From: Eledone cirrhosa
Lineage: Eukaryota
Assembly: GCA_964016885.1 (NCBI GenBank)
Contig: OZ024740.1
Coordinates: 113,336,001-113,400,000 of the forward strand
Length of the DNA stretch: 64,000 bases
Direction: 5' to 3'
The notes beneath the pieces are model-generated. The model had not been told where the DNA came from. It searched no databases and saw only the letters and a list, made by a program, of their open reading frames with translations. The position numbers and the translations under genes are program-made. Below are positions 9,721 to 56,356 of the stretch, piece by piece; the first letter of the stretch is position 1, and each line of letters starts with the position of its first letter.

Positions 9721-10562
9721 AAACTCCAACGACAAGATAAGTGAAGCGACAATAATAATTATTATTTCTAGCATAGCCACAAGTTAGTCCAATAAAATGG
9801 ATCTAATACATAACTGGCACTTTATTTCATTATCGACGAGCTTCGGAAGCATGAAATGGAAAGGTGAGCTCGGTAAGATTTGAAGAGATATGTTTGTAAC
9901 TATACACCGAAAGGAATCTTCTCCAACGTTCTAACAATTTTACCTCTCACCACCCTAACAATAATATGTAGCAGGATTTCCTTTATTTGATTCAATAAAA
10001 CAATAATCATAACAATTACAGTCCTATCACATCTCAGTATGCGAAGGGTTTTATGAAATCAACTCATATTAGATTTGTAAGTTCAGTGGAATTCATCGGC
10101 TTTTTCTGTTGTTTTCCAAATTGAACTTCATGCCAACACCTCGAACTTATCTTATTGTTGATCGCACTGTAGTAAATTGAAGAATTTGAAAAGAGAAATT
10201 AAAGAATTAGAGCAGATTGGTACTACTACACTTTATTTTGTGTGACTTTTATTTATTCGACAAATTTCAATTCGGTTATATAATGTTTGCAATAACAAAA
10301 AGAAAAAGAAAGAGGGAAAAAAATTAATAACGAAAGTAAGGATCCGCCATTCCAATCCTATGAAATATTTGTTTATCGACAAGTTTTAAACGCAGCGTTA
10401 ACCAAGGAGGAGTATGAAATCCGAGCACAATAGACAAGAACAAATATCGCAAGATGTTCAATCTAAACGCTCTAACGATATATTATTTATATAGTTATAT
10501 ATTTTTTATTGATATTTTCGTAATGAATAAAAAATATCGAAAAAATTGCAATGAATAATAAT

Positions 10563-10740
10563 TGTTTCTACTTTTGGCAAAAGGCCAGCAATTATGCCAA
10601 TGTATTACTGGTACTTTATTTTATCGATTCCGTAAGGATGAAAGGCAAAGTTAACCTAGGTGGGATTTGAACTTAAATCGCAAAGGAGCGTAACTCTATG
10701 CTACAAAGCATGGCGTCCGACCCTCTACCGACACTGCCAA
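10563..10740 (-). mobile_element. tRNA-type SINE copy with 10-bp TSD
   Basis: Reverse complement matches the SINEs at 20842 and 23789 (tggcagt.tcggtagag head, gttcaaatccc B-box-like, gcctttcatcc..cgataaaataaagtaccag core, ggcctt.tgccaaaagtagaaaca tail). Flanked by gaataataat at 10553-10562 and 10741-10750. Confidence 0.88.
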
Positions 10741-11599
10741 GAATAATAATACTAGCGATGGTTGCTGCAACGGTACTTGTAGCGGAATTGTTTTTGGATG
10801 GTGGTGGTTATGATGTTGGTGATGGTGGTTTTAGTGGTCTTGTTAGTGTGTTGGTGATGATGGTGGTCGCTGACGTTAAACTAATGGTGGGAATTGTGGT
10901 GGTAATATTGGTAATGCTGATATGAGTGGAAATAGTGGGGTGTTGCTGTAGGCTGAGATGATGGTGGCAACAGTAGTGATGTTTCTACTGGTGGTGGGGA
11001 AGATGTTAATGGATATGCTGATAGAGATTCCTATTGTTGACACTGTTGCGAATATTTTTTTTTATCACTGCGCAAAACAGGAAATCACTTTCGAAAAACT
11101 CTTGAACAATAACATAGCCTAAAGGAAACGATATCATTACAGGGAAGTTTGGCGCTGTTGTATGGGGTTTTGTAGTTGCTGTTGGTGGTAGTAAGGGTGG
11201 ATATAATTGTTGTAGGGTAGTTGATTGTAGTGATAGCGGTAACGTTGGCAATACTGATGGTGACTATGATAGTAATGGGAATGCTCGTAGTGGTAGTCGT
11301 AGTAGTGATGGTGGCAGCAGTGGTAATGAATATGATGATGATAGTGACTATGATGGTATGAACTATGATAAGAGTGGCACTCGTCGTAATGGTGGTGGCA
11401 GTGGTGGTTGTGGACCTTTTAACAGTAAAGCTAGTGAGAATTTCTGCGGTGAGTATTTCAATTGTTCAAACTCTTAAAACTACCGAAATATTCCACACAT
11501 ACGTGTATCCTTAAATTATCTCCCAAGCTGAACTACCCAGATACAATATGTCACCTTTCAATTAAAAATTCAGTCCATCTGTTTCCATCTCCCCAGTTC

Positions 11600-11722
11600 A
11601 ATTTATACCACTTGGATTGATCTGAAGTTATATTAGAGACACTTGTTTGAGTTGTCACTCATGAGTTTGAATCCGGGGACCACATGAGTGGGAAGCAAAA
11701 CGTTAGCTAATTAGACATGCTC
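11600..11722 (-). mobile_element. Degenerate head of a second SINE family
   Basis: Minus strand reads tgcttccca..catgtggtccccggattcaaactc...caagtgtct, a tRNA-like head. Highly diverged. Confidence 0.35.
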
Positions 11723-11979
11723 AAGTCCACTAAGTGAAGAAAACCTGTTAGGTACCTAAAATTGTTCCTGTATCAAGAGATGCGACCGAGAGACTATATC
11801 AACAGTAGAAAGATGAACCAGACGTAATTTTCTTGGCCAGAAAAGAAGGATCGGCCCCCATTGTCTCACCTTTCTTGTATGTTATTTCTAGTATATACAT
11901 TGACTGCCTATAGATTCCCTTTTGGCTGATAATAAATTTCATGAATACAACTGCAGATGTTTGAATTCGTGTTCAAAAT

Positions 11980-12042
11980 AGAAGAAGAAGAAGAAGAAGA
12001 AGAAGAAGAAGAAGAAGAAGAAGAAGAAGAAGAAGAAGAAGA
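11980..12042. repeat. (GAA)n microsatellite
   Basis: Directly visible. Confidence 0.95.
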
Positions 12043-12240
12043 GACAGAGTTCCCTGTACTTTTAACTGAGTCGTAGTGGTACAGAAATCCTTTGATTCTG
12101 GAATTCATCGTAGAGAGTAATAGTTCATTGCTTGATTCTTCATGCCAACTCACCACCATCTTGTGAAAGCATATAATTATTACTTAGCCACAAAAGTAAC
12201 AACATTATTAGTCGAGATGTCGTATAAATTTACTGCAAAA

Positions 12241-12297
12241 TTTATTATTGTTATTATTATTATTATTATTATTATTATTAGTATTATTATTATTATT
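12241..12297 (+). repeat. (ATT)n microsatellite, 5' target flank of Tx1 copy 2
   Basis: Directly visible; abuts the element start. Confidence 0.93.
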
Positions 12298-54067: not shown

Positions 54068-54299
54068 GTGCCCAAATTTCTACCATCACTAAAACTGCCA
54101 AAATCCTTGAGCCTCTGAGATGAAGGACTCTTCTGAGTCCAATTAACGCTTCACGAAGCAACTGATTACTAAAAGATCTCACAAAAAACAACTTATCATT
54201 ATTGTTGTTGTTGTTCAGTCTCTGGAGACGTGTTACAGATCGGTGGAATAAGTTCATTGTTTGTTAATGCGTTTTAAACATTTTTGTATGAAGATTATA

Positions 54300-54806
54300 T
54301 ATCGATTTGAAGCTAAACTCCACTAACACCACGACCGTCAACACAACGACATCTACGACAACCAGCACAACCGACACTACAAAGATTTACCACAACTAGA
54401 AAATATACCCAACAACAGCAAGCAACAACACGGAAACTTCGTGCTACTGAGGAGGGCCAACGAAGAATTGATGGCCCTCATTGTCCGAAATGAGGATATT
54501 GGGAGGCCACTTTTGGCTCCTTCATGTTTAAAGTACCACAGAATGTAATGATGGAGTGTGCGTATGTCTCTTGAGACATGCAAAACGATTAGACAGTGCT
54601 TTCCCTACAACATGGAAACCACTAATGTAAAAGCCACCGCTAGGCCTTTGAAGGGATTTCCAAAGGAAGCCCAACTAAATTTAGGTAGTCGAACCATCCG
54701 ACCTCCAAAAGCACCGGAAGGGTAATAGTTCTCTTTTCAGTTAACATGGGCATTTTAAGAGTAGGGTGCGTAAGGGTACGTGGCCTGTGGTCGTCATGGA
54801 AGCAAA
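54300..54806 (+). mobile_element. Old Tx1 remnant: end of ORF1 and first codons of ORF2
   Basis: ttaacATGggcattttaagagtagggtgc...ggcctgtggtcgtcatggaagcaa = MGILRVGCVRVRGLWSSWKQ, matching the ORF2 starts. Left boundary uncertain. Confidence 0.65.
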
Positions 54807-55092
54807 CACTGTTTCCATATTATAGTAGCAATGCAATGAGATTATTTCCCAAGGAAAGAAAGAGTTTTAAATTTCATATTATTAATGATCATGGTTAAAA
54901 CCATCTCCTTCTTCTTAATATTGACACTCCGTTTGGTACCTTATTGATTGCACTTTAAGTTACACAAATGGCAGAGTGCTTTACGTCTGTTTGCGACTAA
55001 AGTCGATAGCTTATGTGATTAAGCAACTTTTCTTTACTTGAATAATAATAATAATAATAATAATGATAATAATAATAATAATAATAATAATA

Positions 55093-55168
55093 ATAATAAT
55101 AATAATAATAATGTCACTGGTTGTGACTTGGTGATAACTCGTATAAACATAAAGCAAGATAAATGCAA
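55093..55168 (+). mobile_element. Extremely 5'-truncated Dong/R4 copy (terminal ~75 nt) within (TAA)n
   Basis: Matches the reverse complement of 52440-52495; flanked by (AAT)n at 55041-55092 and 55169-55202. Confidence 0.85.
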
Positions 55169-56054
55169 ATAATAATAATAATAATAATAATAATAATAAT
55201 AAGGGAAGAAGACGCACGAGGTGGTAGAAGGTCATGAAATCGCTCCCGTAAGTTTTTGATTTTTAACATATTTAAATCAATTGTGAAATCACAATTCTTA
55301 GTACAAATGTTGCATAAACCACCGAATGAAGTCCCATAAAATTTCGGATCCATATTATATTGTTATATCGCTCAAATGTTCAATTTTGTATTATATATTT
55401 TGTATTCAAAAAAAGAAAATGGTTATAAATGGAAGAAAACACCCTCTGTCTACACTATATAGAACAGCCAAATAACAGCAATTTCACCAACACCAGAAAC
55501 TTGATACACCACCTATCCCATCACACTAAATATAACAGCCAGATAACGGCAATTTCACCACCACCACCATCAATCCCGGCATGATAATAATAATTACTAT
55601 TATTATTGTCTCAAATTTTAACAAAATGTTTAATTCCAATTTTACGGGAATATGTCAACACAATATATATTAAACATACGAACACAAATTCATAGATACT
55701 ACATATCACAAAACCCAGTAACCACAACGCCACCGCCACCACCACCCCATCCATCATCTTGCTACCACTATCCCATCGCCGCCGCCACCACTCCTTCATT
55801 GCTACCACCACTATTCCCCTGTTAACTTGAGAGAGAAAGGGGAAGGTGGCGGTATCACTAGACAAGGGAGAGGCTAGCAAAAGATATAAATAGATTGACT
55901 TAGTGACCTGGCCACCGGCCAAACGTCAACATCAACAACTATGGGACTGCTGGCTCACCCCTTCCTCACCAACAATATAAAAAGCCCCGGCACCACCACC
56001 GACGTAGCCAACAACAATAACAGGCAACTACAGCAAAAAGTATATTATATTATT

Positions 56055-56099
56055 GTAATGCACTGGGTGATTGCTGGCCTTGTGCCTGGAGTGGAGACA
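56055..56099 (+). mobile_element. SINE 3'-tail fragment inserted in the Dong-B 5' UTR
   Basis: gtaatgcactggg...tgctggccttgtgcc...gaca flanked by attatt; absent from the paralogous site at 36460-36490. Confidence 0.8.
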
Positions 56100-56356
56100 A
56101 TTATTAATAATTTCATTCTTAAGCCACGCAATGCTCACATTAAGGAACCACTCATGATAATAACAATTTAAAAAAAAAAAAAAAAAAAAAAGAAAACCCC
56201 GTGACCAAGAAATACCGGGATGGCGGCCGGCGGGGAATAGCCGTGTCTCTAGGGGAGAACGACCCCTCTAGTCTTGGTTGACACTCGTTCTAGAAGTGGT
56301 AACACGAAATGCTTACCCCTTGGCGGATAAGGATAAAACGCGACAAAATAAAGTAA

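Follow-up and report, generated by a model that had tools for sequence, protein, structure and literature searches.

Which enzyme copies a retroposon that encodes no protein of its own? The question is raised by a 64,000-nt stretch of the Eledone cirrhosa genome (assembly GCA_964016885.1, contig OZ024740.1, positions 113,336,001 to 113,400,000 of the forward strand; hereafter the window, within which all coordinates are given), where a short interspersed nuclear element (SINE) with an apparently tRNA-type head lies among ATT repeats together with long interspersed nuclear elements (LINEs) of the Tx1 group. A first-pass annotation had proposed that this SINE is a parasite of an ATT-targeting Tx1 family. 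The terminal sequence of the two elements, their junctions, strand polarity and target site duplications (TSDs), and the young copies of each largely support that proposal, in which the mobilisation itself is what we infer. It is very likely that the Tx1 group in some form moves the SINE. The more specific reading, that ORF2 protein from ATT-targeting Tx1 lineages copies the SINE in trans by way of a shared 24-nt end, we consider likely.

The SINE and Tx1-group LINEs end alike

Ungapped alignment of the SINE tail at 24166-24193 with a Tx1-group end at 18153-18180 gives 22/28 identical positions, exactly as first annotated, and 16/22 once ATTATT is left out. When the terminal 24 nt from each of three SINE copies were compared, without ATT, with six Tx1 ends, 14-17/24 positions matched at a shift of 0 or 1 (per-site p between about 4e-6 and 4e-4), as against 7-12/24 for seven ends of CR1, RTE and Dong elements, each scored at the best of seven shifts. 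The SINE and Tx1 3' ends are in register to the last base, and Tx1 lineages with 3' untranslated regions (UTRs) that are otherwise ~73-87% alike or cannot be aligned retain the terminal motif. Two observations could have undone the proposal at this point, a better fit of the tail to another LINE (CR1, L2 or RTE) and a likeness that vanishes without ATT. No better match was found among the sampled LINE clades, and the likeness stays.

The same pairing emerged from a reciprocal scan of a genome sample, which consisted of 100 evenly spaced 10-kb stretches (1 Mb of the 3.0-Gb genome), mostly from the largest contigs, and was complemented by targeted loci. Using a SINE-tail matrix that contains no ATT, we found that Tx1 3' ends made up 8/13 of the best matches in the 1 Mb outside the SINEs covered by our search profile; the other top matches were mostly stray SINE tails. 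Two tail-like matches, in L066 (9600-9640) and L152, were rejected as LINE ends because the surrounding repeat runs on identically past ATTATT. This repeat occurs as long inverted copies, is Penelope-like by appearance and carries, ahead of an ATTATT, a motif resembling the SINE tail that may have arrived long ago as a passenger insertion.

Both elements insert at ATTAT in the same orientation

Target sites were analysed in 81 full-length SINE copies anchored in the sampled genome. A TSD (score of at least 10) was called in 43 of them, as compared with 2.1% of flank-swapped controls, and measured 10-26 nt, mostly 13-20 nt. The TSD opens at the base directly after GAAAC(A/C); its left copy, which is not SINE-derived, opens with ATTAT in 33/43 cases and is preceded by a pyrimidine at position -1 in 37/43. 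The ATT is therefore target DNA, and the ATTATT first annotated as part of the SINE tail does not belong to it. The perfect 10-nt repeat reported around the SINE at 10563-10740 was confirmed. In published accounts TSDs measure 7-18 bp in the L1 clade and mostly do not exceed 13 bp in RTE (PMC6007223, available part), ranges by which the SINE fits the L1 clade better than RTE.

The bias is strand-specific and needs no TSD call: ATTAT lies within 22 nt upstream of the SINE head in 38/81 copies and its complement in 6/81, against a background of 5.1% at random positions and 6.4% farther upstream of the heads. After removal of the 19 copies preceded by a SINE-like end, the counts were 27/62 vs 3/62. 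Most SINE target sites (37/43) contain at most three ATT units, and short-type SINE tails (defined below) were joined to at least four ATT units in only 8/61 cases and to TATC in 0/61. Thus the ATT preference ascribed to the SINE holds for strand and sequence, but its object is a short Y^ATTAT motif rather than (ATT)n microsatellites as such.

Among the 30 best matches to one SINE copy, a young set (median pairwise divergence 1.2%) that includes two pairs of duplicated loci, TSDs were present in 26, with lengths of 11-29 nt (17-20 nt in 15 of these). They start with ATTAT (14), GTTAT (5), ATTAC (3), ATTAA (2) or other sequences (2), nearly always the same on both sides, and the insertions begin exactly at the element end, without poly(A). 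The first TSD base was equal on both sides in 6/8 usable GTTAT and 12/12 usable ATTAT TSDs. The three independent loci nearest to one young-SINE query all lie at GTTAT sites.

The 3' flanks of Tx1-group copies opened with ATTAT at 29/30 loci and with GTTAT at one. Of 20 longer loci, 17 had a resolved 5' junction, and 15 of these 17 open from ATT runs, three of them directly behind a SINE tail. By the published measure of target preference, more than 20% of flanks of one sequence type (PMC4494074, available part), both flanks place this LINE among target-preferring elements. At least four ATT units follow 26/29 young Tx1 ends and 18/30 ends of a second Tx1 subfamily, truncated copies of which (L352, L358, L374) show 15-20-nt TSDs opening with ATTAT. 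SINE and Tx1 are thus alike in their junction (element end, then ATTAT), strand polarity, 13-20-nt TSDs and young copies.

The SINE is abundant and many LINE copies keep intact frames

A SINE search profile made from 30 loci gave 233 matches in the 1 Mb, 152 of them with a 3' end, which scales to several hundred thousand copies genome-wide; a single 26-nt variant of its end alone has 54,799 exact genomic matches. The element is short (<700 nt), non-coding, interspersed and of high copy number, as the SINE2 definition has it, and bears the TSDs and 5' truncation that mark retroposition. Its short subfamily (187 nt) accounts for 67/81 full-length copies, at a median divergence of 6.8% from its own majority sequence, and its long subfamily (216 nt) for 14/81, at 13.2%. 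The tRNA type of the head is suggested by visible box A-like and box B-like stretches (near 23983 and 24052 in a long copy), judged against the usual box consensus; neither ARAGORN nor Rfam reported a tRNA in the window or the SINE array. By eye, the SINE body has no visible likeness to the Meta domain (BivaMeta/BivaMD, in the supplement of PMC4824008, available part).

A sister SINE (L038, L040, L057, L062, L114, L147) has the same head and body with a different, longer pyrimidine-rich 3' part. The L057 SINE, whose tail is more Tx1-like, has no second genomic copy within one mismatch and hence was not accepted as a subfamily.

The Tx1-group LINE has two ORFs. Its ORF2 carries the Pfam domains PF03372, PF00078 and PF13966, and its ORF1 a visible CCHC knuckle, with a weak PF00098 match below the cut-off. 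In copy 1 of the window, a CCHC-knuckle ORF1 region is followed by an ORF2 with APE, reverse transcriptase (RT) and zf-RVT domains. ORF2 scores 190 bits against the Xenopus TX1 149 kDa protein (29% identity over 980 aa) vs ~100 bits against human L1 ORF2p. An RT tree made by a quick method, with Xenopus TX1 but no named L1 included, unites the family with support 100; the resulting clade belongs to an open radiation that also holds TX1 and is separate from RTE, CR1 and Dong. Identity over the last 145 aa is 100% in more than 120 of the 150 copies scored, and many keep intact frames of 1195-1204 aa.

Four of the five Tx1-type ends in the window are followed by ATT; the end of copy 1 (7808) is followed by TATC-like repeats. 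Other (TATC)n-flanked copies of this kind (L041, L049, L065, L125, L128, L136) carry the terminal motif too, and TATC-flanked lineages are nested among ATT lineages in the tree; a target switch inside one family is likely. The copies at 12298 and 44318 are ~92% identical in ORF2 and 3' ends and have different 5' modules, which suggests 5' module exchange among Tx1 copies. Among distant Tx1 relatives from metagenomes, mostly at 25-32% identity, the terminal motif was absent from the 19/80 loci inspected; one of these relatives (L222) ends in U2 snRNA-like sequence and is presumably Keno-like.

A predicted terminal hairpin

The shared tails were folded as a set of 23 ends (15 Tx1, 8 SINE), hand-chosen to cover subfamilies, with the Tx1 ends defined from their open reading frames since a tail regular expression fixes some letters of the 3' arm. 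The RNAalifold consensus is a 3-bp stem around a CUUGU loop. The closing pair is C-G in 23/23 ends; the second pair (9-17) is C-G in 15/15 Tx1 and G-C in 8/8 SINE ends; the third (8-18) is G-C in 19, A-U in three and broken in one. Both bases are thus exchanged in two stem pairs, and one of these exchanges distinguishes the SINE from the LINE. Covariation of the stem reached 0.39, vs at most 0.152 in slid controls, and was matched by 0/500 shuffles.

A model for mobilisation in trans

The proposed mechanism builds on target-primed reverse transcription, an established process. A small CUUGU stem-loop that lies 13 nt short of the RNA terminus would be the binding site of Tx1 ORF2 protein. On the bottom strand, the Tx1 endonuclease would make its nick at 5'-ATAAT^R, which is complementary to Y^ATTAT. 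cDNA synthesis would set in at precisely the end of the element, probably with the primer pairing to RNA read-through of the element's own flank, a guess on our part for which one test was negative; the second strand would be cut 13-20 nt away. Each insertion would then duplicate ATTAT next to the element and seed head-to-tail arrays. Because the TSD recreates ATTAT beside the element, SINE-SINE, SINE-LINE and LINE-SINE arrays are all accounted for. AAUAAA stands 6-7 nt before the Tx1 end and is lacking in the SINE; we speculate that, owing to it, Tx1 RNA would carry several AUU units and so favour arrays, with the SINE accepting short motifs.

Evidence against the model, and alternatives to it

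Several observations weigh against this reading. TATC-type Tx1 ends match the SINE as well as ATT types or better (17/24), so that the tail specifies the Tx1 group, the lineage being read from the target; the tail had been taken to point to ATT-targeting Tx1, and of this the group stands, whereas the ATT subfamily is set only by the target. The shared stretch, 24 nt at 58-71% identity, falls short in both length and likeness of the partner tails on record, which measure 35-61 bp at 72-95% (PMC11481361, available part). The LINE sample covers Tx1, RTE, CR1 and Dong, with rare LINE clades outside it; PF09004, queried for LINEs of L2/Rex1 type, matched nothing at all and is no evidence of their absence. 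Unlike the LINE, the SINE is not enriched in ATT arrays (8/61 insertions, where 576/2009 YYATTAT sites lie within runs of at least four ATT units), and a comparison of 19 GTTAT with 21 ATTAT SINE copies, bearing on heritable target choice, revealed no diagnostic body differences.

The hairpin, too, has its weak points. Its support amounts to two or three independent swaps, and the structure was derived from the same sequences on which covariation was scored; single-sequence folds of the ends are mostly no better than shuffles, and the young short SINE has a longer, competing hairpin as its minimum-energy fold. For these reasons, the consensus fold with its covariation makes a terminal CUUGU hairpin common to SINE and Tx1 suggestive only.

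The alternative that survives best keeps Tx1 as the partner and relaxes recognition: the tail would be a relic of an old capture, with the endonuclease and ATTAT pairing directing the SINE and the hairpin idle. This would suit a weak stem of 3-4 bp, the competing fold in the most successful subfamily and a SINE spacer that has drifted from AAUAAA, and for SINEU the published inference is mobilisation by Tx1 without a shared tail (PMC4494074, available part). We nevertheless hold it unlikely, given the retention of the terminal motif across lineages with diverged 3' UTRs, the pair-keeping swaps and the poly(A)-free insertions that start exactly at the element end.

More doubtful still is a partner among LINEs beyond our sample (another L1/Tx1 lineage, L2, Nimb/I or similar) with an ATT end of its own, the likeness to Tx1 being then convergent or a matter of distant kinship. 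The survey comprised only 1 Mb and the targeted loci, and older SINE copies (median divergence 7-13%) could predate the current Tx1 subfamilies. However, a SINE with near-identical young copies should have a recent partner, and all RT-bearing frames in the 1 Mb are of Tx1, RTE, CR1 or Dong types, of which only Tx1 fits both tail and target. In the same genome, CR1 and RTE families (L161-L190, L129, L040) with many near-identical copies end in or at (TA)n, (ATGT)n or (GAT)n.

The LINEs that we take to be R4/Dong-type, from protein motifs and a tree position apart from Tx1, occupy these ATT/AAT arrays too, both in the window and elsewhere in the genome. As the engine of the SINE they are largely refuted and now very improbable, because their polarity is opposite (Dong ends run into AAT and SINE ends into ATT, 38/81 vs 6/81) and their tail match is 7-9/24. 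Comparably improbable is an origin of the SINE tail from the tail-like stretch of the Tx1 5' UTR module, whose stem at 12440-12480 is of the SINE type (G-C at pair 2) and which recurs in copies with the module: tail-only SINE insertions are common and can ride in LINE masters, so LINE capture explains the stretch, and it is the 3' ends that align to the last base. Copying by the Tx1 group through the shared end therefore remains the reading that we prefer.

Arrays and passenger copies in the window

The features of the window are collected in the table. The head-to-tail arrays reported earlier were verified for SINEs (20786-21362 and 23789-24385) and for LINEs (38329-52357). Across the sample, SINE matches at most 40 nt apart lay on the same strand in 42 and on opposite strands in 9 of 161 pairs, and tail-to-head SINE joins also occur in contigs of an independent run (three runs examined). 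The flanks of the long SINE at 23974-24187 make a degenerate TSD that includes the head of the next copy.

The tail-only SINE copy at 56055-56099 had been offered as an insertion missing from a paralogous empty site. ATTATT indeed borders it on either side, and neither 36460-36490 nor L067 contains it; the filled site is one AAT unit shorter than the empty one. An insertion at the identical place in another Dong-type copy (L210) identifies it as one old insertion, a passenger in a Dong-type sublineage, rather than an independent event here.

The SINE-tail-like stretch of the Tx1 5' UTR lies ~150 nt into the module, has the SINE-type stem and recurs in nearly all listed module copies (L081, L094, L192, L196, L197, L207, L291, L303, L305, L365, L380); it may represent the captured tail of an old SINE or serve as an additional binding site. 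Two R4/Dong-type families share the arrays with reversed polarity, and their copies often directly follow a Tx1 end.

Table. Retroelement features of the window
Feature	Position	Strand	Remarks
Tx1-group LINE copy 1, TATC-flanked lineage	1966-7808 (start approximate)	+	ORF2 4113-7566, one frameshift
Right TSD copy of the SINE at 10563-10740	10553-10562	-	ATTATTATTC on the SINE strand
SINE, short subfamily	10563-10740	-	~10 nt missing at the 5' end
Left TSD copy of the same SINE	10741-10750	-	
Tx1-group LINE copy 2	12298-18174	+	ATT arrays on both sides; terminal motif 18151-18174
SINE-tail-like stretch in 5' UTR module of Tx1 copy 2	12440-12480	+	Common to copies with the same module
R4/Dong-type LINE fragment	18193-20003	-	Same ATT array, opposite polarity
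Head-to-tail SINE array	20786-21362	+	Head fragment, full short copy (20843-21027), 5'-truncated long copy (ends 21201), older copy
SINE, short subfamily, first of three in array	23789-23964	+	
SINE, long subfamily, second in array	23974-24187	+	Box A/B-like stretches
SINE terminal 24 nt common with Tx1	24164-24187	+	Predicted 3-bp stem, CUUGU loop, 13-nt A-rich spacer
SINE, short subfamily, third in array	24200-24385	+	
R4/Dong-type LINE copy	33910-37347	-	
Empty site in paralogous Dong-type copy	36460-36490	-	
R4/Dong-type LINE copy	37434-38248	-	
Tx1-group LINE copy 3	38329-44302	+	ATT-flanked
Tx1-group LINE copy 4	44318-50355	+	Inserted in ATT run of copy 3
Tx1-group LINE copy 5	50371-52357	+	5'-truncated, ATT-flanked
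R4/Dong-type LINE copy	55203-58667	+	
Tail-only SINE in 5' region of Dong-type LINE	56055-56099	+	ATTATT on both sides
GIY-YIG-like (Penelope-type) frame	58470-59300		Below Pfam cut-off; replaces the Dong-type 3' part after the RT at 58667

Implications

Animal L1-clade enzymes are the textbook case of the relaxed type, reading poly(A). A Tx1 LINE with a conserved terminal hairpin, as predicted here, with poly(A)-free insertions and with a live SINE partner makes stringent recognition in an animal Tx1 testable, and since intact ORF2 copies and near-identical SINEs exist, an assay is feasible with natural sequences alone. The partnership also points to what probably drives the very large expansion of this SINE and accounts for the tandem arrays. 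As a real partnership in an unusual clade, the SINE-Tx1 pair is well supported. A wider interpretation we advance tentatively, with somewhat less than even confidence: in animals, this may be the first LINE of the L1/Tx1 clade whose RNA end is recognised stringently through a hairpin, a mode of recognition exploited via a captured 24-nt Tx1 terminus by one of the dominant SINEs of the genome, with copies on the order of 10^5, in which one element would serve lineages with different microsatellite targets and flank read-through would set the strictness of the target.

Comparison with known systems

A similar SINE is, we presume, present in octopus genomes, and the present one may be a named octopus family. 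The octopus tRNA SINEs OK, OR1 and OR2 (Ohshima and Okada 1994) are cited in the available parts of PMC3531059 and PMC4824008, which name no partner LINE for them, and the LINE set found here (RTE, Dong-R4, CR1, L1-Tx1, Penelope), together with SINE abundance, resembles an Octopus vulgaris table (PMC13282606, available part).

Tx1-partnered tRNA SINEs had been called rarely reported. We found no tRNA SINE with a Tx1 tail in the literature, a search with Repbase, Dfam and subscription papers outside it; a Tx1-mobilised SINE as such has a precedent in SINEU (PMC4494074, available part). The 58 SINE/LINE pairs of Ohshima 2013 (PMC3747384, available part) include three SINEs with L1-clade tails, all from plants or algae, and no Tx1 pair in Table 1. 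Bivalve SINE partners belong to CR1, CR1-Zenon, L2 and Nimb (PMC11481361, available part), and the available text of Kojima 2018 (PMC5786205) does not mention Tx1.

In the clade of its partner and in predicted structure, the SINE resembles ZmSINE2/3 with LINE1-1_ZM and SINEX-3_CR with L1-1_CR, tRNA SINEs with an L1-clade 3' end and a compensated hairpin; those pairs are from plants and algae and have 45-80-nt tails that end in poly(A) (PMC3747384, available part). In its targets, the LINE resembles Kibi/Koshi and crocodilian Tx1, which insert in (TC)n, (TTC)n, (TTCC)n and (TTTC)n microsatellites, as the present lineages do in (ATT)n and (TATC)n; the available part of that paper (PMC4494074) describes no partner SINE for them. 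The closest parallel for the partnership is SINEU with Tx1-Mar of crocodilians (Kojima 2015, PMC4494074, available part), where mobilisation in trans by a target-preferring Tx1 was deduced from a shared target and overlapping age. SINEU has U1/U2 heads, poly(A), a Mariner target and, in that account, no Repbase LINE matching its 3' half, whereas the present SINE has an apparently tRNA-type head, a LINE-shared 3' end, no poly(A) and a short ATTAT target. For the predicted CUUGU hairpin the model is ZfL2/UnaL2 (Hayashi et al. 2014, PMC4176376, available part), LINEs of the L2 clade for which assays showed that ORF2 protein binds a 3' stem-loop, reading the loop specifically and leaving the stem exchangeable; here the hairpin is predicted only, and its stem is much shorter.

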